From: a virus
Taxonomy: Duplodnaviria; Caudoviricetes
Strand: one strand, 5' to 3'
Length of the DNA: 26,069 bases
Virus record (IMG/VR): IMGVR_UViG_3300011416_000292
Span: 1-26,069 of that record
The notes beneath the pieces were generated by a model that saw nothing but the letters and a program-made list of their open reading frames with translations, was not told where the DNA came from and did no database searches. Positions 3-21,989 of the stretch are shown in pieces. A program made the translations under genes and the position numbers. The stretch's first letter is position 1. Every line of letters starts with the position of its first letter.

Positions 3-1325
3 AGTCGTCGCTGACGGATAAAGATGCAGGTCGACGTAATCATCAAACTTATCAATAAACTTTTCCGTGCAACTGACATTTATACAGCCGGCACCATAGC
101 CAGAAGGGTTGTAAGTAGTCATCTGTTCCAGCATACCTTGTAGTCCCGCTAGAGGGTTCATGCCTGGAACGTAGGTTGCCGACACCAGTTGCACCCGCCA
201 ATCAGGGTCAACAGCCTTAAATGCGTCATAAACCGCAACTTGATAAGTCATCCAGACAGGATTAACATAACTGCCGCTATAACCAACGTCAGGCAGGATA
301 CGCAGGAAATAGTTTGCTTCATTGAGTGGTTCGATAACTATTACGTCAAGATCGTCCTTGTACCTCTCTGCCAGAAACTCCGCTTGCGGCATGATATAGT
401 ACGGCAGCAGTTCAGCAAGAGTGTCATAATCCGGCATGAGCGCAGGCCAATCGCGTGAATATGGATGGGCCAACGCAAGTATAAGTTTCATACCGTACTT
501 ACGAGCATTGAATACCGCACGATCTACAGCCGACCAATCGTCATTTTCAGATATGGTGATCGGTTGACCACTCCAAAGATGATGCTTGGCAGGCAAAGCC
601 CATTCTCGAACTACCTTGATCCCCATTTCGTGCATCTTCTTGTAGGCAAAATCCACCCTGTCAAGCGTGGCGTTCCACGGATCCCCGTAATCATCGCCGC
701 CAAGATAGTAAAGAGCGTCAGAATAACCGCGCACGGTATCACCGTTACATCCCATTTCTACGGTAGAACGGAATACCCCGCCATCAGCACGTTTGTCACT
801 TACAATGTCATTTAGTAAGTAGTTGTATATTTTAGAGTTAATGGTCATAGCCAATATTTCAGGCTCTTTAATGATGGTGCTGTCTGCGGGTTCCTTACCG
901 CTATTTAGCGCACTCAGCGCATCCTTGACCGTTGTGCCGGTGACGGTGGAGGTGTTGGATACCTGTGTATCGGAGATCCCGGTCAGGCTTGCCCCGCTGC
1001 CGGTGGGGGTCAGATACGTTACTGCTGCTTCGGTCTTGGTCAGGCGGTCATTTCCGGTGTAGATGGAAAAAACAGATGTTGCCAGTTTTTCTGCTACTGC
1101 CGCGTTGACCGCATCAAATTTGTCACCTGTTGTGGATGTGAACAGGTCGAATATGCTTTTGTCCGCTTTGCCGGCGAGTTGGTTCTTAACCGCTGTTGAA
1201 CGGTTCAGATACCTTGCCTCATTGACGTATTTAGTTATATCGCCAGGGCCGGAATAACTGATATTTACCGCGCAAGCAATCAGGAAAACAACAGCCAGGC
1301 CATACCCTTTAATGTCTCTTTTCAT
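3..1325 (-). CDS. Tail-associated glycoside hydrolase, clan GH-A (GH5-like TIM barrel), 3'-truncated by the window edge; signal/lipoprotein-like N-terminus
   Basis: Absent from the ORF track because it has no stop in the window. Manual translation from ATG 1325 (ATGA overlap with the upstream stop): MKRDIKGYGLAVVFLIACAVNISYS..., then MHEMGIKVVREW, WSAVDRAVFNARKYGMKLIL, LAERYKDD..VIEPLNE (NE acid/base motif), YDAFKAVDPD, VDLHLYP. Confidence 0.75.
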   Translation of the reverse strand, partial: MKRDIKGYGLAVVFLIACAVNISYSGPGDITKYVNEARYLNRSTAVKNQLAGKADKSIFDLFTSTTGDKFDAVNAAVAEKLATSVFSIYTGNDRLTKTEAAVTYLTPTGSGASLTGISDTQVSNTSTVTGTTVKDALSALNSGKEPADSTIIKEPEILAMTINSKIYNYLLNDIVSDKRADGGVFRSTVEMGCNGDTVRGYSDALYYLGGDDYGDPWNATLDRVDFAYKKMHEMGIKVVREWALPAKHHLWSGQPITISENDDWSAVDRAVFNARKYGMKLILALAHPYSRDWPALMPDYDTLAELLPYYIMPQAEFLAERYKDDLDVIVIEPLNEANYFLRILPDVGYSGSYVNPVWMTYQVAVYDAFKAVDPDWRVQLVSATYVPGMNPLAGLQGMLEQMTTYNPSGYGAGCINVSCTEKFIDKFDDYVDLHLYPSATT

Positions 1326-1756
1326 AGTTCCTCCGTTGCAAGATCCCCATCTTTTACATAAAGCCTGTAAGCGATTGCCGTCAGTGCGTCGTTGATGATG
1401 TTGTTCTGTTCCGTTCCTGACGCAAGTTCAATGATTGCCAGCGTCCCGTTGACCGTCTGCACCTGATAAAATAGTCCGCTTACTGGATCAAGAACTGTTA
1501 CGCTGATTGCTGTGCCGCTCGGCAGTTCCGTTGTCCTGAGTTGCCCATTGTTAATCTGAATGTTGTAGACTTTGCCATTCTCAGTGTCGGAAACTATCGT
1601 GTTCGGGGTAGGAACCCCACCAGCCCCAGGCCATGATCCGCCATCCCAAAGAGGAAGACCACCAGATGATACAGAACAGTGAGACAAGAATTCCAGTGCC
1701 GCGGGTGACAGGCCGCGGTCAGGCAAACCGGTCCTGTTGTTGTGCCTGTATTTCAC
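1322..1756 (-). CDS. Hypothetical tail-associated protein (~144 aa) with three short beta-rich repeats
   Basis: Likely GTG start at 1756 overlapping the upstream TGA (GTGA), rather than the track start 1807. Repeats: D..NGKVYNIQINNGQL / D..SGLFYQVQTVNGTL / D..TAIAYRLYVKDGDL. Confidence 0.6.
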   Translation of the reverse strand: MKYRHNNRTGLPDRGLSPAALEFLSHCSVSSGGLPLWDGGSWPGAGGVPTPNTIVSDTENGKVYNIQINNGQLRTTELPSGTAISVTVLDPVSGLFYQVQTVNGTLAIIELASGTEQNNIINDALTAIAYRLYVKDGDLATEEL

Positions 1757-2106
1757 GGGTACGAAGCACCGTTTACCGAAATAGCCACCGCATTTGCGGC
1801 GTCGCAAAAGGCCCTGATGGTCGTGCCAGGCAGAAGAGCATCGTTAAGAACGAAGAAGGCTGAAGAGTCTTCTTCGCCGGCGGCTTCGACTGGTTGCTGG
1901 TCGAATCTCCTATTCGCTGGAGTCGGGGTCTCGTCAGGCGGCACAATATGCACCGTCACTTTTCTGGCCGTTGCGGATGTATTACACAAGCGCATACTGG
2001 TCAGACAAACGACTTTGGTCTTCATCAGATCAGTGGTCGGCACTTTGTATAAGACCGCCAGCGTGTCTCCTAAAAGCGCACCTTGTATGATGGGGATAGG
2101 GTTCAT
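1753..2106 (-). CDS. Small beta-sandwich virion/tail protein (~117 aa)
   Basis: Start MNPIPII at 2106 has GAGG upstream. The LYKVP...LCNTSATARKVTVHIVP...IRAFCDAANAVAISVNG pattern is typical of small phage tail-region proteins. Confidence 0.6.
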   Translation of the reverse strand: MNPIPIIQGALLGDTLAVLYKVPTTDLMKTKVVCLTSMRLCNTSATARKVTVHIVPPDETPTPANRRFDQQPVEAAGEEDSSAFFVLNDALLPGTTIRAFCDAANAVAISVNGASYP

Positions 2107-2132
2107 AGAGTCCTCATTACCACGTTGTCGGG

Positions 2133-2789
2133 TCAATACACGATCATCAGGATGCCGGTTGATGTGCGGTAAACATTGCCTGCTCCCAATCCACCCGTGA
2201 TGGCAGCGGTATTGTCGGCATATACCGGTATGCCCGATAGCGTTATGACCGGAGCTGTCAGGCTGATGGATTCTGCCCCAGCTATTTCTGTGTTCCCTTC
2301 CAATAAGGACACGAGACCTGTTTGAACCGCATTCTTCAGGGAATACAGGTAGACCGATACCCCGTTATTGATTACCCTTGATTCGTATACGCCAGAGGTG
2401 GCAACGGATATTATCCTGTTATTTATCTGCCCTTGTATCCCGCTTTCCACACCATCCACATAATTCAGTTCATCAGTGCTGGCGGTCAGTCCATCAAGTT
2501 TGTTGATCTCATCCGCAGAAGCAGTGACTGGAGTTGCCCCCAGAACGAGTGAGGGAGTGGTTACCTTGACAGAGGCTGTGATCTCTGTGGCAGTGATCGG
2601 ACCAGTAACGACTCCACCAGTTTTGTCCACCTTGGAATTGACTGCCGCCGCGATGTTCCCGAACTCCGACCTGATTTCTGCCGATGCCCCGCTGCCGCCG
2701 AAGATTGGTTCGCCTGATGGGGTGTAGTCCATGGGGATGCCTCCTGAAATAAGTAATGTGATCGTTATCAACTGGACGATGTGTTTCAT
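2133..2789 (-). CDS. Tail fibre/tail-attachment-like protein; alternative in-frame start at 2732
   Basis: GGAGGT before ATG 2789 and AGGAGG before ATG 2732 (MDYTPSG...). Contains fibre-like repeats VTASADEINKLDG / LTASTDELNYVDG and a C-terminal YADNTAAITGGLGAGNVYRT motif. Confidence 0.7.
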   Translation of the reverse strand: MKHIVQLITITLLISGGIPMDYTPSGEPIFGGSGASAEIRSEFGNIAAAVNSKVDKTGGVVTGPITATEITASVKVTTPSLVLGATPVTASADEINKLDGLTASTDELNYVDGVESGIQGQINNRIISVATSGVYESRVINNGVSVYLYSLKNAVQTGLVSLLEGNTEIAGAESISLTAPVITLSGIPVYADNTAAITGGLGAGNVYRTSTGILMIVY

Positions 2790-2809
2790 TGCTACCTCCG
2801 TAAAACGAG

Positions 2810-2849
2810 AATACCCTGCCGACCTTCTACTGAAGGAGAGCAGGGCATT
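2810..2849 (-). terminator. Long stem-loop downstream of the giant gene; putative terminator/attenuator
   Basis: Minus strand AATGCCCTGC-TCT-CCTTC-AGTA-GAAGG-TCG-GCAGGGTATT, followed by CTCGTTTT and then the RBS of the next gene. Confidence 0.5.
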
Positions 2850-2929
2850 GAAGCACGGCTATTGTGTTTCCGGCAGGCCAAGAGGACTGCACTTTATGAG
2901 GTGTTACGTACCACAAATTTTGCTAATGT

Positions 2930-5900
2930 TCAACGATTGAATGCTTTAATTAACTTGTCGTAGATAATCTCTTCCTCTTCCTCGATGTCCTTTACCCGGT
3001 TCCGCTTCTCGGCGAAGGGCATGTCCGACAGCCTGATGGCATCCACGGCATCCCGTTTGGCCTTGGCCAGCTTCATCTGCCGGTCGGCCAGGTTCGCCAC
3101 GGATATCAGGTCGGCGTTGTCTTCCTTCAACTGGTTGGCGACCTCCGGGTTCTTGTCCTTCTTGGCGGACTTCCACTCTTCCGCTGCAGTCTTGGCGTCC
3201 CCAGCGATCTGGTAGAACAGCTGCCGGGTGTCCTTGACGTTGTTCTCCTTGCCCAAGACCGAGACCATCGGGATCTCCCCGACCTCGGGACCACTGCCGC
3301 CATCCACCATGCCGAGACCGACCTGGGCCAGACCGACTGACTGGTCAATGAACGTGAAGGCACCACCTAATATCGACCGGGTGTAGAACTTCAGCACCTC
3401 GGGGGATACATCGACTGCACCGGAGGAATACTTCGTTCCACCGGATATATCATTCAGGGCAGCCGAAGTCTTCTCGTACAGAGTTCCCTTGGTGGCCCGG
3501 TACATGTTCTGGGAATCAGGCTTCGACTCACTGTATTTTGTCGGCGCGATGGGTGATCCAAAGCTCCCCAGATTCGTGGCCGGTGCCAGTAGGAGTTTCG
3601 GGACTGTTGGTAACATGGCGACCGTGCTTTTCCAGTTGAGACCTTCATGGGTGACCGGATTTCCCAGCGGTGAGAGGCCGTCCATGATGGCACTGGCCAG
3701 GTTCATGGCAGTCTTTTTGTCAGCCTTTCCGTGGGCAAGGTCGTTGATGGCATATCCGATCCCCACGAAGGATCCGTACTCATAAGGAAGGGGGATGGTC
3801 AGGAATGACTTCTCGCCGGTCCTGATGACAAGGTTGCGGTTCTTGGTGGACCGGCCGACCTTTTCCCATTCGTCGTCATCATCGCCACCGATCCCCCGGG
3901 AGAGTTCGGCAGCCATGTACCCCACCATGGCCATGGCGCCGACCAGTGCCTGCGCCTGGTGCTTGTGCTTGGACTCCGTGAGGGCGAAGATACTGCGCTG
4001 GATACCTTGGACAGCCGGGTTGAAAAATAGCCACAGGGCTCCCATCTGGGGGCCGAGTTCGCCCTTCTTGTCGAAGTTGATGGTTGAGTTCTTGGCGGCC
4101 TCTCCTGCTTCGGCCTCTGACTTCCCTTCTTCCACCAGGGTGATGAACGTGGCCACCCGGAATGCATTCTCTGAGATGGAGTTCATGGCTTCGATCATCT
4201 TGAGGAAGTGACCCAGGATAGGTATCTTCTCGAATCCGGCCACACCCGATTTCGCCAGGGCCTTCGTTCGGGCATACATCGGGCTCCGACCTTCTGCGAT
4301 CTGCTCGTCATAAACTTGACGGTAGGTGGCGATGGCCCCGATGTGTTCATGGTACATGGACTCAACATCATCGCCCAGCCGCTCAAGGGAGGACAGATAG
4401 GATGCCCCGGTGGACCCGCCCTGCTTGCGGTAACGGTCGATCCACTGACTCTTGCTCGGATCCTTGCGACCCTTCCAGAACTCCTTGACCGCCTTGGGGT
4501 AGTTGGCTGCAATCTTGGCTGCCGTGGCCACCCCGTAGTCCCCTGTCAGGTTGACCATGCCAGAGGTGAAGTCCCGGATGGTGTTCCTGATGGTGAACCG
4601 CGGGTCGTATCCGGTGTAGGCCCGGGAGAAATAGTTGTTGATCGTCTTCCCGATTGTCAGCAGAGTTCCGAGCCCTTCCGCCCCCATGTTGGTCAGGGCG
4701 TCGGCAGAGATCTGGTCGTTGATCTGGATGCGGACCTGGTGCCCTTTGACAAAGGCATTGACCTCGTTCTTGCCCAGCATCGGGCTGACCATCATCTTGA
4801 CTGTCGGGTCGGTTGAGATGTCCACCACGTAATCATCGATCGGAGTGTGATATTGCGCCCGGTGAGCAGCGACGAAATCATCAGCCTCTTTCTCTGTACC
4901 GAAGGCACCGATCACCGTACCCTTGAATTCAGCCGTGTAGACCTTCTGGTTCTTGAAGACCCTGCGGAGTTCCGGCTTACCTACTGTTCCGATGGCTGGG
5001 TCGTTGGCCTCGACCAGCAGGGAAATAATTTGGAGATTAACTTTATTTTTTTCTATTGTCTTGATGGCCGATTCACGGGCCTTGATGATGTTCTCCAAGA
5101 CATGTTCCTCGCGGAGTTCATGCCCTGCCCTGCGCTTGAGGTTGCGATTGACGACCTGACCCTTGCCTGCCCCGGGCTTCGTGTCTCCCTCACCACCACG
5201 CAGCGGGACGTAATGAGTATATGCACCCTGCCAGGCGTCTCGCATTTCCTGAGAGATGATGCCTGCCTTGAGCAGCATGTCCGCCGACTCATCCGAGAAT
5301 GCCCTGAAACGGTTGGCGATGCTCTCCAGCTTGGCGAAGTCTGCCCGGGCCTTGTAGACCTTCAGTGCGTCTGCAGCTTCCTTGTCGGTGACACCGAATG
5401 CTGTAGCAGTGGGGTCCTTGTGCAGTTCTCGCATCGCCTGATTCGCTTCAGCGGCGTGTTGCATCAGCAGGAAGTCGCTGATGTCGTCCAGTTTGATCTT
5501 CTCCTTGGCGGCCTCTTTGATGAGGGGGCCAACCTGAAGGTCCATGAAGCGCGATAACTGGTCAGCGGTCTTGCCAGCTTGAACTGCGAGACCCCTTGAT
5601 ACGTCCGCTTGTTCGGAGAGGACAACCCCGTTGTCTTCCAAGTACTCCTGCAGCACATCCAATCTGTTGAACTTATTTTGGAACTTACGTTTCAACAGTT
5701 GATATGGAGTTTCCACCGGAAGATTATTTTGTCTTACCGAATACTTTGGTGAATCGCCTTGACTAGTTGTCCCATCTAGTATACCATTGGATATCTTTTC
5801 TATGGAGGTAAGCATATGCCGAATGTCATCTGTGCCTTTTGCGGAACCACTACCCACAAACTGCCGTACCAGATCAGGCAGAGTAAGTCCGGTAGATTCT

Positions 5901-8900
5901 ACTGCTCTTACGAATGCAGTCAATCTGACCATCGTAGTGTATGGGTCGACTCCGAGGGATATCAGAGATCCAAGGTTGCTGGACGGTCCCCTCTCATCCA
6001 TCGTCAACTTATGGAGAAGCATCTCGGGCGCAGACTGTTGTCCAGTGAAGTCGTCCACCATATTAACGAAGACAAGACGGACAACAGGATTGAGAATCTT
6101 GCTATCCATAGCAGATCTGGCCACATGTTCGAGCACAATCCCTTGAGTTTTGATATCAAGGCCGCTGAAACCATGCTCAAGGAAGGACTTTCTGTGAACG
6201 ATGTCGCTGAAAAACTTGGTGTCACTCGCGGCATCTTGAGTGGTGCTTTTATCCGTAGAGGCACGACCACCAACGCGGTCAGAGGACTCCCCCCTCAAGT
6301 TGAGAGAAGACCTTTGCAACTCCCTGAGATAGTCGAGTGCATCAAGAAAAGCTGGTCCCTGGATCAAATGGCTGACTTTTTTAAATGCAGTACGAGTTTC
6401 ATCAGGGACACCATCAGGAGTAATGGCACCTCTCTGAGAAAGATCAGGGTGTCTCTCGGTCTCCCCGCTGGCATCACGCCCAATCGGATTTACTGATTCA
6501 CGTTTCTGTTTTACCGAGAACATCGGGTAGGATGCAGGAGTCTTGTCTGTGATGGGGATGTAGGGGACAAGGATAAGCGTGGACTGAGTGCCTGGGTTGA
6601 TAATATCGTAAAAGCCAGTTTCTCTATTCTGCCTTACCTGTAAATCTTCTGTGGCATGGTTTCTTTTAAGGAATATTTCAGCGGCCTCTCTACTGGTGAA
6701 ACCACGCTCTACTACAGGGCGGGCGTTCTTTTCGCCGATGCTTGTTTTACCTACCCCCTCTTTCCCATACTTCTTGAACAGGGCAGGGAGAGTACGATCA
6801 TAGAGAGCCTTCAGTCCAGCCCCCCCAATCGACAAATCCAATCCCGAGAGAATCTTTTCTGACTCATGGTATTTTTGCTTTACAGAGTCTTTAGACTGAT
6901 TTAGAATATCAGCATGAATATTCAAAAGTTTTGCGAGTTCTGTGGTGTTGAGATTTTTCACAAGTGGCCTTCCCATCTTGCTAGGAAGAGGTTCTGCTCC
7001 AGAACGTGCAGGTCTAGTTTTCTGTGGGATACCGTCAGTGCCAAGATGGAAGATGCGTCCAGGGCTTACAATGCCGACAATTTCTCTCGCGCTGAGATCA
7101 CTTGTCCGCAATGCGGGAAGAAGCGCTACGTCTCCCCTGCCATCCTCAAGGCTGGTGCTAAGTTTTGCTCCAAGGCTTGCTCCGACATCGCGCATCGCGT
7201 TGACAACCCCAACCGCCACAGGACTACGTTCATTGATGGCAAGCTCACCAAAGACCATATCCTTATTGTGGAAAAGGCTATCGGCAGAAAGATGGTTCGC
7301 GGAGAGGATATTCATCACATCAACGGGCAAAAGCGAGATAACAGCCTGCTTAACCTGATCGTGTTGAAGCATGGACAACACACTTCCGTCCACTGTATCC
7401 AAAGGCATCAGAAACGCCATCTTAGTGCCGTAGACATTATCAGCCAGTTCCCCGATGCCTTGTGGCTTGGTAGCCTCGTCCCATAGTGGGTTGCTCGAGG
7501 CCCCTTCCCCATCGCTTATTTTCTTAGCTATTTCTTTGCCAAGATATTCCTCTATGGTTTTATCGGTTGCCCTAGATTCAGTCCAAAGACTATGCCCATC
7601 TTTTTCTGCCGAGACCTTGTATGTGCCATCTTCGTTCGGCTGATAAGCGATTTCATCTACCTGCTTGCTCAAATCATACCTTGCCGCCTGCATGGCACCG
7701 GTCGTGAAACTCACCCCGTCAAATCCGTTCTCCTTGGCATAGGCCAGTACACGCTTGACGCCGATATCGTAGATGCGCTTGACCAGATATGAGGGCATTT
7801 TCTTCTGGTTGGCAAATGACGGACCCTGCATCTCTTCGACAAAAAGAATTTTGCCCTGCTCGGTCTCGCGCTCGTTGAAGCGGATTCTTACTATCGGATT
7901 CGTGATCGATTCGTATTGCGAGTGGCCGTCTTGCCATTTACCAGCCTCTCCTGCTACCCGTTTCTTATAGTTTGGGTGCTCTTTTAAATCACTTCTTGCC
8001 TCTTCCTCTGTAGGCCATCTTCCCATTCGTTCGCCATCAAGAAACGCATCAACTCCATTTTTTGCAGGAGTTGTCGTTATGACTGATGCAGAGGATAAAC
8101 CGAGTCCCGGTGCTGTTACAAACATCTCCCTGTACGATCCTGCTGCTGCACCAGGTTCTGTGTATTGGGAGAAGTGGGTGACATCTTCTCGAAAGTCGCC
8201 AACTTCTTCTTGGTATCTTGCGTGTGCTTCGCTTTGTTCGGCTGGCGATAACTCTGAATAAGGGGTTTCTTCGTTCGCTCCCCCTTCGTCATTCCACCAT
8301 GCCTCAACATCACCCATATCAGGTTCGCCCAGCACCACATCCTCAAGCTCAACAGAATTGGCCTGAATCGCTTCCAGTACTTCCGCCTTGGTCACCGCCT
8401 TGCCTTCGTCGAACTCTCCCAGCACGGTGCCGATTTCGTCCTCTGTGACTCCATTGTTGCGTAACATGGAACGGAGTTGTGGAACGAACATGCGACCTGA
8501 CATCTTCTGCTCGACCACTTCCGCCAGTTTCGACCGGAAGGGCTGCAGTCTTTCCCTTGCTTCCTTGAGAGAGTACCGGATGTCAGGGTTGGTGGGGTCA
8601 AAGGAACCGCGATTTCCGATTGCGGATTTTATCTGGGTAGGGGAATAAACAATGTAGGCTTTCCGGCCATCTGCCCTCACTATTTTCCCATCATAACCTC
8701 GGGACAGTGATTCTTCTGCTATCGTGATTCCTTTTGCTATTGCTGACTTCTTGATATCTCCTGCCACTCTATCAGGAACTGGGTTTTCAATCTTAATGTA
8801 GACGGGCATAATGTTACCGCCCCGCCCTGTTTTGTTTGCATATTCCGCCGCATATTTGGTTGACTCTGTGAACATGAAGGCGCCCACAAAACCACCCGTG

Positions 8901-11900
8901 CGGGATGTCGTGTGTTCATCGGAAAACGCATCAAAATCAGCAGGAGTCCCATGATAAACGACCAACGGATTCCCATCCTCATCCACCACACGGCTATTTT
9001 TAAACCATGCTTTGAACTCAGGTGTCTCTGTCTGCTTGGTGGAGAACAGAGGACCGTTTTCGATTCCTGTCTTGATGGTAGTTACTGCAGCGGGATTGTA
9101 AATCACCACACCGCCGAACGACCTGTCGAAGAGCCCGTCTACTCCCGCTTTTTTCATGATGATTGGGAGTGAGTCGCTGGATAAGAGATTCCCTTTTTTC
9201 GACAGGACATCCCACCTCATGGAATCCACTTCATCCCTGAGGTCAAGTATTTTTGCAGTGTCTTTGATTTTGATGGCGATTACGGACCCGCCACTCTCAT
9301 CTCCTGACATGTCAGCGTAATTACTCTTTGCCAGACCGTAGTCCGATGCCAGATAGAGACCCTTCCCGAAATATCCAGCAGTGGTTTTGTTGAGGTCTAT
9401 CTTCTTGTGGATGGACTCAGCCGAAGATTTCTCGGTGCCATGGAACATAACCCTTCCTGCCCATCCCTTGACTGGGACGTCTTCGGGGTCGATTGAATAC
9501 TTGGAAACCAGGTCGTCCGCGCCAAGGTTTTCTGTCTGCTGTGCAACAGGAGTGACTGGGCCGGCGAACCCTATAAACTCCTTGGAGAGTCTGATGGCAT
9601 CTTCGGCACTAACCTGAGACGCAGACAAGTTGTTACCTGATTTGCCTTCTGCCCTCCAGACACCGAATTCTTTGTACGTTCTCCAGCCGTTCGACCAGAC
9701 GGTCTCTTCATCTCTCAGTCGCTTCCCCTTCACCGAGAACTGCACATCATCCAGCACCGGCTTCATCGGATTGCCTTGGTCTGACTCTTTGTCCATATTC
9801 TCATAAAGGAATGGATCGATGATTTTCTTGACTGCTTCCAGATCAGGGAACAGGTCGGTGACGTCCAGCCCGTTGCGCTTGCCTGTGTCCAGCAGCCTGT
9901 CGATGGCATCGGCGATGGCCCTGAACAACTTGGGTGCCACCTTGGACAACCCGCGCCAGAACTCCTTGTCGTGCCACCGTGTAGCAGTGAGGTCGGCGAT
10001 GATTTCCCGGTTGACCTCATCGGTTGAAAGGTCGCGTTTGCGGTTGGTCTCCAGCCATTCATGGTAGGTCGCCCGGGCCTCGGGGTCAGCCAGAGCAATA
10101 ATCTTGTCCATGACTTCAGTGTACCCATCCGACCTCTCGAATGAATGGGTGATCTCATGGCCTACCACTACCAGCATGGGATGTGTGGTGTCTTGGGCAA
10201 GGAAGATATTCCCCCCCCAGTAGACTCCGTTGAAACGAGTGGATTGTTTTACGAAGATGGGTTTCTGGATGCCGAGAGCAGCGGATATCTTGAGGACATC
10301 CTTCTGCTCTGGCGTGAGGTCTGTTGCTACTTCAAGGGTTTCTCCGACTGCTCGGGAGAGCCCTGCGGCTTTTTGTTCTGCCAGGGCCGTGGGAAACGGT
10401 CCTTCATCTGGAAGTGTGGTGCTGTCCTGTCTCCCTGTGCGAACCGATGGTTGCACTCCGACATGTACTGGTACGCTTCGTCCGTTGTCATAACCACCCT
10501 CCTCAAGGATGACCTTCTGTGCAGCCGGTTCGATCTGGTCCCAGCGAACCTTGGGAGTCTTGGTAGAACCTGCCCTCTCCAGCAGGTCCTTTCTCTCAGA
10601 CCGTTTGAGGCCGTCCCACCAGCGAGTTACTTTTTGTTCTGTTCTACCCTCTTCTTGAACCTGTCCCTCATTGACTGCAGAAACAGTTTCCGATCCTTCG
10701 GCTGCAGTTTCTGGCTCACTCGTTCCAAACATTTCGTCAAAGAGTCTGAGAGCTTCATTGGCTTCCTCCGGTGTTAAATCCTGTTCGCTGAATGTATCGG
10801 CTTCATGGTCAACGGCCTGTAACGATTCCTCAACGTCTTCTTGCGAGAGTTCAGGGAATCTATCAAGTATTGCCTCAACATCATCAGGATGGATAACAGG
10901 GTTGCCACTGGCCTGCGCTCTGACCATATCGGCAAACGACTGTGTGTCTACTTCTCCATTCACATCAAGGGTGACATTCCATCCTTGGTCCCGCATGTCC
11001 CGCGCCATCAGGTCAAGGCCAATTCCATTCTTGCTCTTGATTCTCAGATACCGTGCGCTGCTGGTTTCCTTCGGGTCGATGAACTTTGCCAGTGATTCAG
11101 GAGTGATCCCCCCACCCTGCTTGATATCGCTGAACAGATTGCGCGGACCTTTGGGCTTGGCTACTTTTTCTTTTTGCGGCTGAGAAGTTCCTGTTCCTTT
11201 TTCTCCAACGCCGGTATTGTCACTGACGGTGGTTGGCCCTCCAGGTGCTCCATTCCTATTTCCTTCAGGAGCGACTTGTCCGACATGGTGAACCTCCTTG
11301 GCTGCTTCCTTCGCCTTCTTTACTCTCACGGACGCCAGTTCAATGGCGGTCTTGGCACTGTCCGCTTCACCGAATTCACTGACTCCGATATGGAGACCGG
11401 TCCCGGGTGCCTTCCCTTTCGGGTGGGCAAGATCAGACAAACCATTTTCCTTGGCGTAAGCCTGTATCTTACCGTGTACCACTTTCAGGGCTTTTGTCAA
11501 ATCTTCTTTTGAAACGCCCGGGGCGATGACGGCCAGCTCATCCCCACCCTTCCTGATGACCTGGGCCCCCTTGAACTGGCTGACCCCTTCTCTGAGAATA
11601 TCTGCCATGGCACGGAAGTGCGTGTTCGCTTCTTCCTCGCCTCCGGGGAGCTCATTCAATCCCCCGAGGTTATGGATGTCGGCGATGGCATAGGCCACCT
11701 TCGATCCCTGGTTATCGTGGAGATCCCATGCACGTTTGAGGGTGGGCCCATGGTGGCGCCGTTCGATCAACCCGGTCTCGGCATCGGGAGTGCGCTCGTG
11801 CTTCCGCCGATCTTCCCGAGTCTTCTCAACGGCCGGGTGTCCCGGTTCCAACCCCGTTTCGATCAGGTCCTGCGCTGCCTTGTCGGCGATGACATCTGCT

Positions 11901-14260
11901 TCGTGGGGGAAGGTTACCTCAGTTTGGTCCCGCACGTCGGACAGAGGCGTTTCCCCTTGCACACTTTTTTCTGGCACTGCGGACACTTCATTCGATTCTC
12001 CTTTTGCGACTGGTGTCTCAATTTGAGAAGTTTCCCCCGGCAGGGATGGGGAGGGGGCCACCCCTGCCGGAGTATTGGCTTGCTCTACAGGGGAGGGACC
12101 CGGAGCAGAACCAAGTTCAGTGAGTGCCTCGAGTGCAGCCCGATGCTCCTCAACCTTTGCCAGTGCGGAGTCTCTCGACGCACCTTTAAGCCTGTTTGCG
12201 GCGATGCCCCATGATTTCATGCCCTGCCCATGGATGGCGATCTGCTGCTGTTTCTCTGCCTGAACCTGCTCGGAACCTGGTGCCTGGTCCCATGCCGCTC
12301 GGAGACCTTCATGCCCTTCTGTCGCAAGTTGAGACTGGATTGTCTGGAAACCACGCTTGGCTGCCAGGTCCTGTGCGAAGGTCGCGTAATCCTGACCGGC
12401 CAGCTTTGCCGCTGCAGCCTGTTCGGCGATAGGCGCAGGGGTTGGTTGGGGGGTGAACTCCTCGGGGCTCACAGGGGCCTTCTCGTTCACTGAAGGAGAA
12501 ACCACACCTTGTGATGTCTCGGCGATGATCTGGTCGACAGTCTCTGCAGGGGCAGCAGGTTCTTCTGTGGTCGTGGCGCCACCCAGTTTACTAAGCAGGT
12601 CGGCCTGATGCTCGGGAGACCCTACCGTGCCATTAACAGTCTCGTTGGCGGCGGCGATCGCATCGTCGACAGAGACGCTTCCATTGCTGATACCGGTGTC
12701 GGGAACTTCGACCTTCGCCTCGGCCGGCGCATTGAACTGCTCCCACCCTTTATCGTTGGCGACCATGCCGACCGGTTCGCTTTCGAAACCCTTCCACCCT
12801 TCTCCAGTAGGTTCGACCGGAGCAGTGAATATATCAGCACTGTACGGCAGTGCAGAGTTCGAAGTGACTGCGTTGGTGATGTTGGTCCGGGCGGTCTGCT
12901 TCTCTTCTTCAGGAATAGCACTGGCGTCCACGACTGCCATCAGTTCGTTGGCTGCCGATACCCGAGACTTGGCTGCAGATATCTTTGCCTGCGCCAGGGT
13001 CTCCCCTTTGGCGGTGAATTCCGCTACCTTCTCTGGGGTCACCGGTGAGAACAGGTCTTCCTTCAGTCTGGTGGATTGTCTGGCCTGTGATATCTGCCCG
13101 GCTGTTTCGAAGCCACCGGTCACCGCGGCACCGGACACACCACCGACAATTCCTGCCTCAATCATGCGCTTATTGATGTACTCTTCGCGGGTCATCCCGA
13201 TGGGGAGTTTGACCATGCCAGTGTCGAGATCCTGCTCGGCCTGGAACTTCTCTGTCCCCACTTCCGACATGCCTTCGAAGGGGACATCAGCTGCAGCGTG
13301 AAGAGCGATCGCAGTGCCGCGCTTTGTGGCGGATTTGGATATGTCTTCGAAGAGTGCCTGCCCTGTGTTGGTCCCCGCCACCTTGGCGACGAAGTTCCTG
13401 ACCACACTGGCGGACCCGCCCATCGGAAGGAACTTGGCACCGAAGGCACCGGCCTTTATGATCGATGCCTGTGCGGAGTTGCCGGCCATTTCGAAGCCTG
13501 CCTCGTACACTCCGTACTTGGCAGCTGCGGCCTGCATCTCGTCCTCGCTCATCTCGATCTTGCCCTGCTCTTTTGCTTCCCGCAGGTCCTTCAGTCTCTG
13601 CAGGTATGAGTCCTGGTACATCAGGTAATTGGAGACGCTACCACCACCAGGGAGAAGATTGGGCACCATGTACATCATCGACCTGGGCAGGTTCTCAATC
13701 ACCTGACCTGTGATACCCATAGCGGAATCTTCTTCGAACTTTCCGCCGGTCACACCCTTGTCGACCGACCGCAGGGCCCCGCCTACCGTACCCCTCAGAC
13801 CACCAGACTGCTCGGCCACAATCTGCTCGGTTGGAGCGGTGCGCTGGATGTGAGTCTGGCCTTCTTCATCCGTCCAGGTCTCGGTGTCTGGCGTACCGAA
13901 AAGGCCCACGTCGCTGCGGTTGACATCGAGCGGATCACCTTCGATCAGGTTACCGATGCTGGATATGGCGGACGTGCCTGATTTATACAGACTCTTTCCG
14001 ACTTCTTTTGCGGTAGGAATGATGCCGTGAGGAACGAGATCAGTAGGAAAAAGTGGATCCGTACCGGTAGCGATTGCCTCGGTTACGTTGGCCGGCTGGG
14101 TGCGGTCGGCGTAGAGCTCACCATCATAGATGGAAGGCTTTACCTTGCCTTGGGTTGCGAAGTCGGTCTGGTCATCGAAGGTGATCTCGTCACTGTCAAG
14201 AAAAGTGCCGCCCTTCTTGGGGGTATCAAACTGGACCTCCGAAGCGTCAAAGAAAGTCAT
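2930..14260 (-). CDS. Large polyvalent (virion-ejected/internal core-type) protein, 3776 aa
   Basis: Continuous ORF with RBS AAGGGG, located after the ejection-type genes. Contains GGDEF, HExxH, two ART-like and LPD38-like segments. About 470 codons are antisense read-through of two HNH cassettes. Confidence 0.9.
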   Translation of the reverse strand: MTFFDASEVQFDTPKKGGTFLDSDEITFDDQTDFATQGKVKPSIYDGELYADRTQPANVTEAIATGTDPLFPTDLVPHGIIPTAKEVGKSLYKSGTSAISSIGNLIEGDPLDVNRSDVGLFGTPDTETWTDEEGQTHIQRTAPTEQIVAEQSGGLRGTVGGALRSVDKGVTGGKFEEDSAMGITGQVIENLPRSMMYMVPNLLPGGGSVSNYLMYQDSYLQRLKDLREAKEQGKIEMSEDEMQAAAAKYGVYEAGFEMAGNSAQASIIKAGAFGAKFLPMGGSASVVRNFVAKVAGTNTGQALFEDISKSATKRGTAIALHAAADVPFEGMSEVGTEKFQAEQDLDTGMVKLPIGMTREEYINKRMIEAGIVGGVSGAAVTGGFETAGQISQARQSTRLKEDLFSPVTPEKVAEFTAKGETLAQAKISAAKSRVSAANELMAVVDASAIPEEEKQTARTNITNAVTSNSALPYSADIFTAPVEPTGEGWKGFESEPVGMVANDKGWEQFNAPAEAKVEVPDTGISNGSVSVDDAIAAANETVNGTVGSPEHQADLLSKLGGATTTEEPAAPAETVDQIIAETSQGVVSPSVNEKAPVSPEEFTPQPTPAPIAEQAAAAKLAGQDYATFAQDLAAKRGFQTIQSQLATEGHEGLRAAWDQAPGSEQVQAEKQQQIAIHGQGMKSWGIAANRLKGASRDSALAKVEEHRAALEALTELGSAPGPSPVEQANTPAGVAPSPSLPGETSQIETPVAKGESNEVSAVPEKSVQGETPLSDVRDQTEVTFPHEADVIADKAAQDLIETGLEPGHPAVEKTREDRRKHERTPDAETGLIERRHHGPTLKRAWDLHDNQGSKVAYAIADIHNLGGLNELPGGEEEANTHFRAMADILREGVSQFKGAQVIRKGGDELAVIAPGVSKEDLTKALKVVHGKIQAYAKENGLSDLAHPKGKAPGTGLHIGVSEFGEADSAKTAIELASVRVKKAKEAAKEVHHVGQVAPEGNRNGAPGGPTTVSDNTGVGEKGTGTSQPQKEKVAKPKGPRNLFSDIKQGGGITPESLAKFIDPKETSSARYLRIKSKNGIGLDLMARDMRDQGWNVTLDVNGEVDTQSFADMVRAQASGNPVIHPDDVEAILDRFPELSQEDVEESLQAVDHEADTFSEQDLTPEEANEALRLFDEMFGTSEPETAAEGSETVSAVNEGQVQEEGRTEQKVTRWWDGLKRSERKDLLERAGSTKTPKVRWDQIEPAAQKVILEEGGYDNGRSVPVHVGVQPSVRTGRQDSTTLPDEGPFPTALAEQKAAGLSRAVGETLEVATDLTPEQKDVLKISAALGIQKPIFVKQSTRFNGVYWGGNIFLAQDTTHPMLVVVGHEITHSFERSDGYTEVMDKIIALADPEARATYHEWLETNRKRDLSTDEVNREIIADLTATRWHDKEFWRGLSKVAPKLFRAIADAIDRLLDTGKRNGLDVTDLFPDLEAVKKIIDPFLYENMDKESDQGNPMKPVLDDVQFSVKGKRLRDEETVWSNGWRTYKEFGVWRAEGKSGNNLSASQVSAEDAIRLSKEFIGFAGPVTPVAQQTENLGADDLVSKYSIDPEDVPVKGWAGRVMFHGTEKSSAESIHKKIDLNKTTAGYFGKGLYLASDYGLAKSNYADMSGDESGGSVIAIKIKDTAKILDLRDEVDSMRWDVLSKKGNLLSSDSLPIIMKKAGVDGLFDRSFGGVVIYNPAAVTTIKTGIENGPLFSTKQTETPEFKAWFKNSRVVDEDGNPLVVYHGTPADFDAFSDEHTTSRTGGFVGAFMFTESTKYAAEYANKTGRGGNIMPVYIKIENPVPDRVAGDIKKSAIAKGITIAEESLSRGYDGKIVRADGRKAYIVYSPTQIKSAIGNRGSFDPTNPDIRYSLKEARERLQPFRSKLAEVVEQKMSGRMFVPQLRSMLRNNGVTEDEIGTVLGEFDEGKAVTKAEVLEAIQANSVELEDVVLGEPDMGDVEAWWNDEGGANEETPYSELSPAEQSEAHARYQEEVGDFREDVTHFSQYTEPGAAAGSYREMFVTAPGLGLSSASVITTTPAKNGVDAFLDGERMGRWPTEEEARSDLKEHPNYKKRVAGEAGKWQDGHSQYESITNPIVRIRFNERETEQGKILFVEEMQGPSFANQKKMPSYLVKRIYDIGVKRVLAYAKENGFDGVSFTTGAMQAARYDLSKQVDEIAYQPNEDGTYKVSAEKDGHSLWTESRATDKTIEEYLGKEIAKKISDGEGASSNPLWDEATKPQGIGELADNVYGTKMAFLMPLDTVDGSVLSMLQHDQVKQAVISLLPVDVMNILSANHLSADSLFHNKDMVFGELAINERSPVAVGVVNAMRDVGASLGAKLSTSLEDGRGDVALLPALRTSDLSAREIVGIVSPGRIFHLGTDGIPQKTRPARSGAEPLPSKMGRPLVKNLNTTELAKLLNIHADILNQSKDSVKQKYHESEKILSGLDLSIGGAGLKALYDRTLPALFKKYGKEGVGKTSIGEKNARPVVERGFTSREAAEIFLKRNHATEDLQVRQNRETGFYDIINPGTQSTLILVPYIPITDKTPASYPMFSVKQKRESVNPIGRDASGETERHPDLSQRGAITPDGVPDETRTAFKKVSHLIQGPAFLDALDYLRELQRSSLNLRGESSDRVGGRASTDKSTTQDAASDTKFFSDIVHRKSFLEHGFSGLDIKTQGIVLEHVARSAMDSKILNPVVRLVFVNMVDDFTGQQSAPEMLLHKLTMDERGPSSNLGSLISLGVDPYTTMVRLTAFVRAVESTGLTLPDLVRQFVGSGSAKGTDDIRHMLTSIEKISNGILDGTTSQGDSPKYSVRQNNLPVETPYQLLKRKFQNKFNRLDVLQEYLEDNGVVLSEQADVSRGLAVQAGKTADQLSRFMDLQVGPLIKEAAKEKIKLDDISDFLLMQHAAEANQAMRELHKDPTATAFGVTDKEAADALKVYKARADFAKLESIANRFRAFSDESADMLLKAGIISQEMRDAWQGAYTHYVPLRGGEGDTKPGAGKGQVVNRNLKRRAGHELREEHVLENIIKARESAIKTIEKNKVNLQIISLLVEANDPAIGTVGKPELRRVFKNQKVYTAEFKGTVIGAFGTEKEADDFVAAHRAQYHTPIDDYVVDISTDPTVKMMVSPMLGKNEVNAFVKGHQVRIQINDQISADALTNMGAEGLGTLLTIGKTINNYFSRAYTGYDPRFTIRNTIRDFTSGMVNLTGDYGVATAAKIAANYPKAVKEFWKGRKDPSKSQWIDRYRKQGGSTGASYLSSLERLGDDVESMYHEHIGAIATYRQVYDEQIAEGRSPMYARTKALAKSGVAGFEKIPILGHFLKMIEAMNSISENAFRVATFITLVEEGKSEAEAGEAAKNSTINFDKKGELGPQMGALWLFFNPAVQGIQRSIFALTESKHKHQAQALVGAMAMVGYMAAELSRGIGGDDDDEWEKVGRSTKNRNLVIRTGEKSFLTIPLPYEYGSFVGIGYAINDLAHGKADKKTAMNLASAIMDGLSPLGNPVTHEGLNWKSTVAMLPTVPKLLLAPATNLGSFGSPIAPTKYSESKPDSQNMYRATKGTLYEKTSAALNDISGGTKYSSGAVDVSPEVLKFYTRSILGGAFTFIDQSVGLAQVGLGMVDGGSGPEVGEIPMVSVLGKENNVKDTRQLFYQIAGDAKTAAEEWKSAKKDKNPEVANQLKEDNADLISVANLADRQMKLAKAKRDAVDAIRLSDMPFAEKRNRVKDIEEEEEIIYDKLIKAFNR
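3360..3870 (-). other. LPD38-like domain of the polyvalent protein (approximate bounds)
   Basis: WEKVGRSTKNRNLVI...FLTIPLPYEYG...SPEVLKFYTRSILGG, preceded by AKNSTINFDKKG..LWLFFNPAVQG, the usual C-terminal arrangement of phage polyvalent proteins. Confidence 0.65.
5759..5809 (+). promoter_or_regulatory. sigma70-type promoter and Shine-Dalgarno for antisense HNH-1
   Basis: TTGACT (5759-5764), 17 nt, TACCAT (5782-5787). GGAGGT at 5804-5809, 6 nt before ATG 5816. Confidence 0.7.
5816..6496 (+). CDS. HNH homing-type endonuclease (Zn finger + HNH_3-like + two HTH-like repeats), nested antisense in the giant gene
   Basis: CAFC...YCSYEC; IHRQLMEKHLGRRLLSSEVVHHINEDKTDNRIENL..H...H; C-terminal EGLSVNDVAEKLGVT and SWSLDQMADFFKCS. 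Has its own promoter and SD. Confidence 0.9.
   Translation: MPNVICAFCGTTTHKLPYQIRQSKSGRFYCSYECSQSDHRSVWVDSEGYQRSKVAGRSPLIHRQLMEKHLGRRLLSSEVVHHINEDKTDNRIENLAIHSRSGHMFEHNPLSFDIKAAETMLKEGLSVNDVAEKLGVTRGILSGAFIRRGTTTNAVRGLPPQVERRPLQLPEIVECIKKSWSLDQMADFFKCSTSFIRDTIRSNGTSLRKIRVSLGLPAGITPNRIY
6879..6907 (+). promoter_or_regulatory. sigma70-type promoter for antisense HNH-2, predicted leaderless transcript
   Basis: TTTACA (6879-6884), 17 nt, TAGAAT (6902-6907). The ATG begins at 6914, the expected +1 position, and there is no SD. Confidence 0.7.
6914..7486 (+). CDS. HNH homing-type endonuclease (two Zn fingers + HNH_3-like), nested antisense in the giant gene
   Basis: CEFC...FCSRTC and CPQC...FCSKAC; HILIVEKAIGRKMVRGEDIHHINGQKRDNSLLNLIVL..GQHTSVH. 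Confidence 0.9.
   Translation: MNIQKFCEFCGVEIFHKWPSHLARKRFCSRTCRSSFLWDTVSAKMEDASRAYNADNFSRAEITCPQCGKKRYVSPAILKAGAKFCSKACSDIAHRVDNPNRHRTTFIDGKLTKDHILIVEKAIGRKMVRGEDIHHINGQKRDNSLLNLIVLKHGQHTSVHCIQRHQKRHLSAVDIISQFPDALWLGSLVP
8570..9030 (-). other. ADP-ribosyltransferase-like domain (ART-PolyVal type) of the giant protein
   Basis: TPEFKAWFKNSRVVDEDGNPLVVYHGT...FMFTES..YAAEYA...GGNIMPVYIKIENP...GYDG...YIVYSPTQIKSA. Confidence 0.75.
9080..9460 (-). other. Second ART-like domain of the giant protein
   Basis: VMFHGT...GYFGKGLYLASDYGLAKSNYA...GVDGL...VVIYNP (H-G-T / G-x-G-x-Y pattern). Confidence 0.7.
9890..10270 (-). other. Zincin-like metallopeptidase domain of the giant protein
   Basis: FNGVYWGGNIFL...VVGHEITH (HExxH, near 10146-10162) with downstream EIIAD. 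Confidence 0.65.
10327..10491 (-). CDS. Putative overprinted microprotein (54 aa), +1 frame of the giant gene
   Basis: AGGAGG-GTGGTT-ATG; MTTDEAYQYMSECNHRFAQGDRTAPHFQMKDRFPRPWQNKKPQGSPEQSEKPLK*. Confidence 0.5.
   Translation of the reverse strand: MTTDEAYQYMSECNHRFAQGDRTAPHFQMKDRFPRPWQNKKPQGSPEQSEKPLK
11161..11286 (-). CDS. Putative overprinted microprotein (41 aa), +1 frame, directly after the GGDEF domain
   Basis: AAGGAGGT-TCACC-ATG; MSDKSLLKEIGMEHLEGQPPSVTIPALEKKEQELLSRKKKK*. Confidence 0.55.
   Translation of the reverse strand: MSDKSLLKEIGMEHLEGQPPSVTIPALEKKEQELLSRKKKK
11310..11790 (-). other. GGDEF (diguanylate cyclase-like) domain of the giant protein
   Basis: DAETGL...AYAIADIHNLGGLNE..G.EEAN..FRAMADIL...VIRKGGDELAVI...LHIGVSEF; the GGDEL codons are at 11534-11548. 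Confidence 0.8.
11914..11991 (-). CDS. Overprinted 25-aa zinc-ribbon microprotein, +1 frame of the giant gene
   Basis: AAGGAG-AATCGA-ATG; MKCPQCQKKVCKGKRLCPTCGTKLR* (CPxC-x10-CPxCG). Confidence 0.7.
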   Translation of the reverse strand: MKCPQCQKKVCKGKRLCPTCGTKLR

Positions 14261-21310: not shown

Positions 21311-21907
21311 TTACCGCCTTCTCATGGGGACATCAAGTGGCTTATTTCTTGACAGTCGAGCTATGACTGCTTGCACGGTTAATCCATATTTAACGGCCAA
21401 TTCGTTTGTGTTTAACCCTTCGTGGTAGATAGTGTTTCTCTTGTTCCGGTTTTGCATTTTGAGCGGTATCCACACGCAATTGCTAGGTTCATAACCAACA
21501 TCTAACTTAATCCGCTCAATGCTGTATCCAACGGGGCATGGTCCCATGTCTGCATAAAAGGTTTCAAAATTCTCCCATTCCTTACAGACCTTAATTCCTC
21601 TGCCACCATAGTTTTTAAAAGAAATATTCTTAGCATCACTACATCGTGACTTAACCCCTGTCCATATTCGGTACTCTTTACTTTTGCTCATTCCATGTGT
21701 GGTGCTTCTGATTTTTGTCGTGTAACGGCCCAAGCACCCACAGCTTTTTATAGCTCCTGATTTAAGGCAATCCGCCCGTACAATGTGGTGCCTCCCGCAA
21801 CTACATAAACATAACCATGTAGCATTCCCGCTTTTATCTATGCCTTCTCTCTTCACTACGGCCAACTGCCCATACAGAAATCCAGATAAATCTTTTACTT
21901 TATTCAT
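21311..21907 (-). CDS. Free-standing HNH-type homing endonuclease (~198 aa)
   Basis: DLSG..YGQL...WLCLCSCG...SCGC...HGMS...W..VKSRC...YGGRGIKVC.EW..FETFYADMG..P...SIERI...YEPSNCVW...QNRN. AT-rich; start 21907 with AGGGAG. Confidence 0.85.
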   Translation of the reverse strand: MNKVKDLSGFLYGQLAVVKREGIDKSGNATWLCLCSCGRHHIVRADCLKSGAIKSCGCLGRYTTKIRSTTHGMSKSKEYRIWTGVKSRCSDAKNISFKNYGGRGIKVCKEWENFETFYADMGPCPVGYSIERIKLDVGYEPSNCVWIPLKMQNRNKRNTIYHEGLNTNELAVKYGLTVQAVIARLSRNKPLDVPMRRR

Positions 21908-21941
21908 AGCGATCTCCCTTCGCTCTCCAAGGTTTGATTTA

Positions 21942-21989
21942 GCGGCAGACATGGTGGAGTCCATGTTTTTCGGGAGCTACCCTAGCCGC
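21942..21989 (-). ncRNA. Three-way-junction structured RNA, resembling the phage C4 antisense RNA class
   Basis: GCGGC-TA-GGG(TAGCT)CCC-GAAAA-ACATGG(ACTCCA)CCATGT-CT-GCCGC, with all three stems perfectly paired. The family assignment is from memory only. Confidence 0.55.

Follow-up and report, generated by a model that had tools for sequence, protein, structure and literature searches.

Homing endonuclease genes found in coding sequence are usually described as dependent on self-splicing introns or inteins, and the HNH endonuclease I-HmuI, for example, is located in a group I intron. Several published arrangements are relevant here. In actinobacteriophages, some inteins carry a LAGLIDADG or VSR-like endonuclease on the antisense strand (bioRxiv 10.1101/2025.01.02.630785), and the same preprint credits antisense LAGLIDADG inteins to Gorbalenya 1998 and Gogarten 2002. 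Antisense homing endonuclease genes also occur in nuclear group I introns (PMC9548176). Finally, the ShiLan domain and gp60 of Pacc40 are examples of "hidden" HNH genes within the DNA methylase genes of mycobacteriophages (Arsenault, Gosselin & Gogarten 2025, PMC11855218). Here we analyse two HNH genes, HNH-1 and HNH-2, that lie on the plus strand within a giant minus-strand open reading frame (ORF) of a Caudoviricetes virus. The window, meaning the whole stretch of DNA that was analysed, is 26,069 nucleotides long (IMG/VR record IMGVR_UViG_3300011416_000292).

The best explanation of our results, to which we assign a probability of about 80%, is that the giant ORF is read through both inserts without splicing, so that two intact HNH_3 genes, antisense to their host and codon-aligned with it, would be translated from the opposite strand as passenger peptides of ~215 to 250 residues. 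We infer this from the layout of the locus, the absence of the inserts from homologs, the lack of any detected splicing signature, the recurrence of the arrangement, the avoidance of particular codons, and selection on the HNH frame.

The preliminary description of this DNA had proposed two complete plus-strand HNH genes lying wholly inside an uninterrupted minus-strand ORF of 3776 codons, in codon-to-codon antiparallel register. An ORF scan and profile matches bear out each element of that proposal. Pfam HNH_3 (PF13392; curated cut-off, 24.8 bits) matched HNH-1 with 37 bits (E = 2.5e-9) and HNH-2 with 29 bits (E = 8e-7), and each gene matched 11 to 14 HNH families in PHROG. Both genes begin at the lowest-numbered base of a host codon (5816 − 2930 = 3 × 962; 6914 − 2930 = 3 × 1328), which makes each HNH codon the exact reverse complement of one host codon. 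Among the alternative frames, only the codon-aligned antisense frame is free of stops, while the other four contain 5/4, 17/11, 8/7, and 19/16 stops in HNH-1/HNH-2. Antisense shadow frames are common in giant genes: inside 17 giant polyvalent ORFs, we found 116 antisense open frames of at least 140 aa, of which 113 had no Pfam match (E ≤ 1e-4). Yet HNH-1 and HNH-2 stand out as real genes from this background, since the remaining three frames all match HNH_3. These are the two window genes and a 153-aa gene, encoding HNH_3 and a helix-turn-helix (HTH) module, that is codon-aligned and antisense within a 4537-aa ORF with InPase, AAA_34, and Helicase_C_4 domains (locus L019).

The endonuclease itself looks intact. 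HNH-1 combines a Zn ribbon, an HNH core, and two HTH modules, and 11 of its residues (C6, C9, C30, C34, H62, H81, H82, N90, N94, H103, and H107) are invariant among 25 members of its clade. The Zn-binding cysteines and the His...Asn...His core of HNH_3 account for these columns. The predicted model of the enzyme has a pLDDT of 92.8 and appears to adopt an I-HmuI-like fold. Foldseek returned nothing at E ≤ 1e-3 when PDB was searched with the HNH model, and a phmmer search of PDB sequences with HNH-1 hit nothing but the polymeric immunoglobulin receptor, a spurious result of Cys-rich sequence. The best solved structural match, I-HmuI (PDB 1u3e), was a weak top match in Foldseek that was then supported by VIA-align.

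The host of both genes is the longest ORF of a virus record that is ~40% complete. Its 3776-aa product contains the Pfam domains GGDEF (residues 826-987), ART-PolyVal (1760-1887), and LPD38 (3462-3665), and its C-terminal 480 aa share 31 to 32% identity with proteins of Bcep22- and GP4-like phages that are described as "DarB-like antirestriction." Upstream, on the same strand, are a tail gene and the gene for a major head protein. Given these domains, homologs, and gene order, we regard the giant ORF as encoding a polyvalent protein and as part of a late structural operon. It joins unrelated effector domains and polyvalent-specific domains in one giant polypeptide, as is characteristic of the class. 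Earlier work on such proteins (Iyer et al. 2017, PMC5512222), together with the neighbouring head and tail genes, leads us to expect that the product is packaged into the virion. The features of the locus are collected in Table 1.

Table 1. Coordinates of the giant gene, the two inserts, their HNH genes and candidate signals, and a free-standing comparator gene in the window.
Feature	Position	Strand	Description
Host gene, polyvalent protein ORF	2930..14260	minus	3776 aa, no interruption (ORF scan)
Insert 1 (approximate)	5750..6496		HNH-1 cassette plus upstream signals; low-coordinate limit ±60 nt
Promoter-like site TTGACT-17-TACCAT	5759..5787	plus	Upstream of HNH-1, 9/12; putative
Shine-Dalgarno GGAGG	5804..5808	plus	7 nt upstream of HNH-1 ATG; sequence read directly
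HNH-1	5816..6496	plus	226 aa, HNH_3; antisense to host residues 2589-2815, codon-aligned
Host sequence between inserts	6506..6856	minus	C-terminal part of conserved domain, GLDLSIGGAGLKALYDRTLPALFKKYGKEG motif; 35-61% identity to homologs
Insert 2	6857..7504		~216 codons; in variable loop of conserved unnamed polyvalent-protein domain, between 'IGKEIAKKI' and SGLDLSIGGAGLKALYD
Promoter-like site TTTACA-17-TAGAAT	6879..6907	plus	Ends 6 nt before HNH-2 ATG, 10/12; putative
HNH-2	6914..7486	plus	190 aa, HNH_3, N-terminal Cys clusters; antisense to host residues ~2259-2449, codon-aligned
Comparator gene	21311..21964	minus	PHROG 374 'HNH endonuclease' (5e-59); no Pfam match; GC 0.43

That embedding might be a recurrent strategy, as the preliminary description had suggested from two dissimilar insertions, is strongly supported. 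Including the two in the window, we found 28 distinct embedded HNH genes with less than 80% mutual identity, of which 8 come from viral contigs, 9 from metagenomes, and 9 from metagenome-assembled genomes (MAGs), after removal of one duplicate (L132, the same as L046). The 26 further genes come from uncultured phages, and polyvalent-protein domains are present in 21 of the host frames. A search for the conserved host motif with a degenerate DNA pattern recovered 20 viral loci, among them L019. An HNH-alignment search recovered 80, and in 8 of these, the HNH gene lies inside an antisense stop-free frame of more than 2000 aa, always in the codon-aligned register; all of the viral-contig hosts that were tested have domains known from polyvalent proteins. 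An alignment of the clade, used to scan metagenome and MAG contigs, yielded 160 more loci, 114 of which were analysed. Nine of the 10 best metagenome matches and all nine of the best MAG matches are embedded, with several frames running to the ends of their contigs, and polyvalent-protein domains were present in 12 of the 19 metagenome and MAG host frames that were scanned. As a single query in the search for related loci, HNH-1 found no relative and HNH-2 found three free-standing ones. A tblastn search of cultured phages with HNH-1 gave no antisense case in a polyvalent gene among the matches listed (25 of 59 at 1e-5; 60 of 96 at 1e-3).

Most embedded genes cluster on the HNH tree. With FastTree, the label "embedded" changes 5 times across 104 HNH proteins compared to 24.8 times in shuffles (0 of 500 shuffles were as low). 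Specifically, 24 of the 28 embedded genes fall in one group of 27 (support 80), which includes a 19-member subgroup that is entirely embedded (support 87), and HNH-2 pairs with an embedded gene, L191, with both on long branches (support 85). In a quick IQ-TREE analysis, HNH-1 forms a clade with six other embedded genes and one additional locus, L028 (SH-aLRT 99). The clustering of the label leaves the number of independent origins unsettled, because supports are modest and relatives cluster by descent. The HNH gene of L028 (positions 1894-2475) is intergenic, between two minus-strand genes. A complete 193-aa ORF nevertheless occupies its codon-aligned antisense frame; the ATG of this ORF comes directly after the stop of the upstream gene, and the ORF would be annotated as a hypothetical protein.

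Insertion sites are diverse. They include low-complexity linkers, positions next to linker motifs of the type 'FxPxxx(D/N)IxY', and the N-terminal motif of ART-PolyVal. In three loci (L027, L114, and L110), the HNH gene interrupts or abuts this last motif, 'FKxWFGxSxVVDxxGxPLVV', which may be a homing target.

The codon-aligned antisense register leaves a simple signature. Stops in the host frame can arise only where the HNH gene uses TTA, CTA, or TCA, and the preliminary description had noted that neither gene uses any of them. Our counts agree: the three codons are missing from all 227 codons of HNH-1, which has 19 Leu and 23 Ser, and from all 191 codons of HNH-2. In 17 other ORFs of the window, they make up 1.44% of codons (66/4590), and the free-standing HNH gene, which had been reported to use TTA and TCA, contains six TTA and four TCA. 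This gene is low in GC, has the orientation of its neighbours, and probably represents a further mobile nuclease gene. Based on the host's own Leu and Ser codon usage, freedom from all three codons would arise by chance with P = 6.9e-3 in HNH-1 and P = 4.0e-2 in HNH-2. The joint chance is ~2.7e-4, or, by arithmetic, ~3e-5 once the register is included. In AT-rich hosts, where TTA, CTA, and TCA supply 40 to 58% of Leu and 28 to 37% of Ser, the avoidance of these codons is far beyond chance (1.8e-5, 3.5e-5, and 5.5e-7 for L027, L029, and L031, respectively). Summed over the first ten embedded genes, each evaluated with its own host's codon usage, log10 P is −24. The preliminary description had proposed depletion across homologous inserts as a check, and it extends to the entire set. 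None of the 28 embedded genes contains a single TTA, CTA, or TCA, compared with 2.9% of codons in 75 non-embedded relatives (3.8% in those below 45% GC), only 6 of which have none.

Selection acts on the HNH frame and not on the peptide encoded by the host frame, the outcome that had been anticipated for a strand-specific comparison. In seven of seven pairs of embedded genes, identity is higher in the HNH frame than in the host frame. For example, L046 and L096, which share an insertion site just after the InPase domain, are 62.6% identical in the HNH frame and 34.7% identical in the host frame. Pairwise differences are concentrated at HNH third positions, and dN/dS is 0.25 to 0.48 for the HNH frame, where dS is not saturated, versus 0.71 to 1.04 for the host frame. 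These patterns indicate that the HNH genes are under purifying selection while the passengers drift, with the host strand visibly constrained only to stay open. Judged from the sequences, the open host frame is kept by selection across many phages.

Homologs that lack the inserts help to define their boundaries. Insert 2 is missing in all 36 of the best homologous giant proteins that were compared by BLASTP. Regions corresponding to residues ~1907-2250 and ~2471-2585 of the query are separated by 0 to 94 residues in homologs versus ~215 to 290 residues here. All nine homologs that were aligned have a loop of 6 to 20 residues at this position, flanked by 'IGKDLAxKI' and 'SGLDLKVGGEGLKxLYDxTLPALFKKYGKE', and the compared homologs include no near-identical empty allele. 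The flanks of insert 1 are host linker motifs, '...YPMFSVKQKRE' and 'SPKYSVRQNN...', which are joined directly as a single linker in P0022, the closest homolog of the C-terminal module (46 to 51% identical). At both inserts, then, the search for empty alleles that had been recommended found the presence/absence polymorphism of a homing endonuclease gene.

The loop that receives insert 2 belongs to a conserved domain of ~460 residues (host residues ~1907-2252 and 2469-2585; window 7517-8542 and 6506-6856, minus strand) that matches no Pfam family. It is present in more than 100 giant phage proteins and bears the motif 'GLDLKVGGEGLKxLYDxTLPALFKKYGKE'. Three other proteins, P0040 (residues 4269-4456), P0042 (1262-1493), and P0124 (~1277-1526), have segments that are 33 to 43% identical to the HNH-2 passenger. 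These segments occupy other positions within that conserved domain, corresponding to ~2133, 2180, and 2170, respectively, versus 2253 here, which suggests repeated invasion of one domain. The comparison was between protein sequences, and HNH ORFs presumably lie behind the three segments; the DNA of P0042 was not found among the viral contigs. When the HNH-1 passenger was compared with the protein collection (E ≤ 1e-3), no other giant protein was matched by a method that needs shared 5-residue words.

An alternative view of these patterns is that the HNH proteins or the passengers are retained because they benefit the phage and not because they spread selfishly. Among the roles they might have are those of a nuclease that attacks rival phages or host DNA, a spacer within the cargo protein, and a regulator that acts antisense to the late gene. 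Purifying selection on HNH frames that look catalytically intact would be expected under such domestication, as would the long-lived association with one class of host gene on the tree, and a similar idea has been raised for methylases in PMC11855218. Yet the patchy distribution, exemplified by the lack of insert 2 in every homolog compared, along with the differing insertion sites and a host-frame dN/dS of ~0.7 to 1.0, is typical of selfish mobility. We consider domestication unlikely; it is in any case compatible with the read-through mechanism.

A second alternative is that the inserts are removed by a self-splicing intron or intein-like element that went unrecognised, as in inteins with an antisense endonuclease. 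The preliminary description saw no hallmarks of either, and our scans concur. Rfam searches (E ≤ 10) of both strands of positions 5000-8200 found no intron family, returning four chance-level rows (snoRNA/miRNA/CRE). Outside its HNH ORF, each insert has only ~20 to 90 nt; in codons, the excess is ~20 for insert 1 and ~25 to 30 for insert 2. Inserts that exceed their HNH genes by so little could accommodate neither a ribozyme core nor the ~100 to 130 residues of an intein splicing domain. The host-frame peptides of both inserts matched no Pfam family at E ≤ 10 and no PHROG, and none of the 28 embedded passengers, scanned with ±80 aa of flank, matched a Hint/intein family at E ≤ 1. The scan does detect inteins with an antisense HNH gene, because two positive controls, L071 and L100, were both matched by Intein_splicing (9e-12 and 3e-10, respectively). 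Inteins begin with Cys, Ser, or Ala and end with His-Asn, followed by Cys, Ser, or Thr. At the end of insert 2 ('...YHESEKIL|SGLDL'), no His-Asn precedes the downstream junction, which is placed to within a few residues. The existence of L071 and L100 among the same HNH relatives nevertheless counts in favour of splicing and against read-through, and inteins with an antisense HNH gene would also require an open host frame. RNA splicing, however, needs no open frame, yet the frame stays open against a strong codon bias. Overall, we regard concealed splicing as quite improbable.

The two intein controls are of interest in their own right. In L071, an intein-containing terminase large subunit (359-2641, minus strand) has an HNH_3 gene at 1732-2262 on the opposite strand, and in L100, the intein-containing ORF (3953-6841, minus strand) has one at 5638-6351 on the opposite strand. 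In both, the antisense HNH_3 gene occupies the usual place of the endonuclease domain but is not codon-aligned (offset 2). The endonucleases of these inteins are of the HNH type, while those in the cited part of the preprint on antisense inteins are LAGLIDADG and VSR-like (bioRxiv 10.1101/2025.01.02.630785).

Least probable, to the point that we set it aside, is a neutral accident in which recent insertions landed in frame and free of stops in a giant gene that may already be non-functional: although the codon-aligned antisense frame is the cheapest to keep open (free relatives have 2.9 stops in it per 100 codons), shadow ORFs abound in giant genes (113/116), and a joint chance of ~3e-5 to 3e-4 for the window alone is not extremely small given many natural insertion trials, this account would have to accommodate 28 distinct and deeply diverged genes (<80% identity) that cluster on the tree, include those of AT-rich phages with chances of 2e-5 to 6e-7 per gene, and sit in host frames that extend without a stop for hundreds to thousands of codons to either side.

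If the giant ORF is read through unspliced, the locus would operate as follows. The host ribosome would continue through each insert and translate the HNH body as a passenger of ~215 to 250 residues. On the host strand, the ATG of an HNH gene would be read as His and its stop codon as Ser or Leu, so that the whole gene, start and stop codons included, would be invisible to the host frame. The sole cost of the register would be the avoidance of three codons, each of which has synonyms. A giant protein built like beads on a string may tolerate the passengers, because the inserts are in an inter-domain linker (insert 1) and a variable loop (insert 2). The HNH genes would be expressed from signals of their own on the opposite strand, and the cassettes would spread by homing, in which insert-free alleles are cleaved during co-infection and repaired from the filled copy.

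Several aspects of our study weigh against unspliced read-through or soften the evidence for it. No RNA sequencing run was found that contains the stretch. For some polyvalent proteins, proteolytic processing has been suggested (Iyer et al. 2017, PMC5512222), and such processing may remove the passengers. The preliminary description gave each HNH gene its own promoter. Promoter-like hexamers are indeed present upstream of both starts, but the four such sites in the region do not exceed the number in shuffled sequence (2.2 ± 1.5). Likewise, HNH-1 has a GGAGG, but no Shine-Dalgarno sequence was found in the start region of HNH-2. Evidence for an empty allele of insert 1 comes from few and distant homologs, with 4 of 97 matching proteins aligned on both sides. 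Because two-sided homologs are few and the proteins are modular, the absence of insert 1 is weaker proof of insertion than that of insert 2. In several pairs used to estimate selection, synonymous sites are saturated. Of the metagenome and MAG loci, 46 of 160 were dropped by eye as short contigs, and 6 of 27 embedded host frames are short contig fragments with no recognised domain. Finally, the trees are quick IQ-TREE and FastTree estimates, and SH-like support for the key groupings is only 80 to 87.

An independent assembly of the likely source run, the one DNA run found to contain the stretch, has no differences from the window across positions 5687-8300, and megablast of positions 5000-8500 found no match among GenBank phages. 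Independent contigs break at window positions 5243-5322 and 5687-5694, with depths of 7.5, 3.9, and 10.6. These breaks, near the low-coordinate edge of insert 1, could be population variants, such as filled and empty alleles.

Should unspliced read-through be correct, segments of ~200 residues would be the price paid by the host, and these passengers would be almost free to drift. Drifting passengers could then seed new protein modules and promote the shuffling of modules at conserved linkers. A warning for annotation is that some "domains" of giant phage proteins are the reverse complement of a mobile gene. The complete avoidance of three codons, even where hosts use them for 40 to 58% of Leu, provides a quantitative signature and a simple rule for finding further embedded cases. 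Our results point to long, selected two-strand coding. Whether they reflect an old and large HNH lineage that is specialised for antisense, codon-aligned life in polyvalent genes, and thus a third general way for homing genes to reside harmlessly, is in our view an even bet.

The arrangement has more precedent than the preliminary description allowed, given the published relatives in PMC11855218 and bioRxiv 10.1101/2025.01.02.630785. Our literature search found, among the papers it covered, no description of antisense, intein-free HNH genes in polyvalent or giant genes, though the supplements of the preprint may list antisense HNH genes. In sequence, the HNH gene of ShiLan is related to HNH-1, with 38% identity over residues 4-107 (tblastn). 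As described in PMC11855218, it and the insert of Pacc40 gp60 resemble the genes studied here: each is a complete HNH gene in a non-host frame of a stop-free host ORF with no detectable intein or intron, the insert is proposed to add a loop to the translated host protein, and the distribution is disjunct, as here. In ShiLan, however, the HNH gene is on the same strand as its host, in the third frame, with leaderless initiation on the host transcript proposed, and the words "reverse," "antisense," "complement," and "opposite" do not occur in that paper. The window genes both run opposite to their host in codon-aligned register, and HNH-1 is preceded by a Shine-Dalgarno sequence of its own. Moreover, unlike in ShiLan, the host is a giant polyvalent gene, one gene holds two inserts, and most embedded relatives are grouped on a tree.

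Two further loci are similar to the ShiLan arrangement. In L095, a 527-aa ORF for an N6_N4 DNA methylase (5330-6910, minus strand) stays open through an antisense HNH_3 gene (~5956-6411, plus strand; offset 2) that splits the methylase Pfam domain, and this represents the opposite-strand counterpart of ShiLan. In the cultured cyanophage Cr-LKS3 of Cylindrospermopsis (OM373202.1; L266), gene g59 (1980-3830, plus strand), annotated as a "DNA methylase," contains an out-of-frame relative of HNH-1 on the same strand (match at 2501-2818; offset 521 = 3 × 173 + 2). It is a hidden HNH gene of the ShiLan type outside the actinobacteriophages.

Antisense inteins, as described in bioRxiv 10.1101/2025.01.02.630785, also encode an endonuclease opposite a host ORF that stays open, but there a flanking Hint domain excises the peptide after translation, while the window inserts have no detectable Hint domain and no room for one. 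The endonuclease genes of nuclear group I introns (PMC9548176) are antisense to the host gene, as in the window, but reside in a self-splicing intron of rDNA, where there is no frame to keep open. Free-standing HNH genes are intergenic and I-HmuI is intron-borne, so that neither is read through by a host ORF, unlike the genes of the window. Our data carry the idea raised by ShiLan, that some homing endonuclease genes need no splicing, over to genes on the opposite strand and to another, much larger class of host gene; they also raise the number of cases from a handful to 28 or more diverged ones and add the quantitative signature of avoided codons. While the principle itself is not wholly new, the host class, the large clade, and the codon-avoidance statistics are. 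Taken together, these comparisons place the window at the meeting point of two known arrangements, since it unites the antisense orientation of the intein cases with the splicing-free residence of ShiLan.

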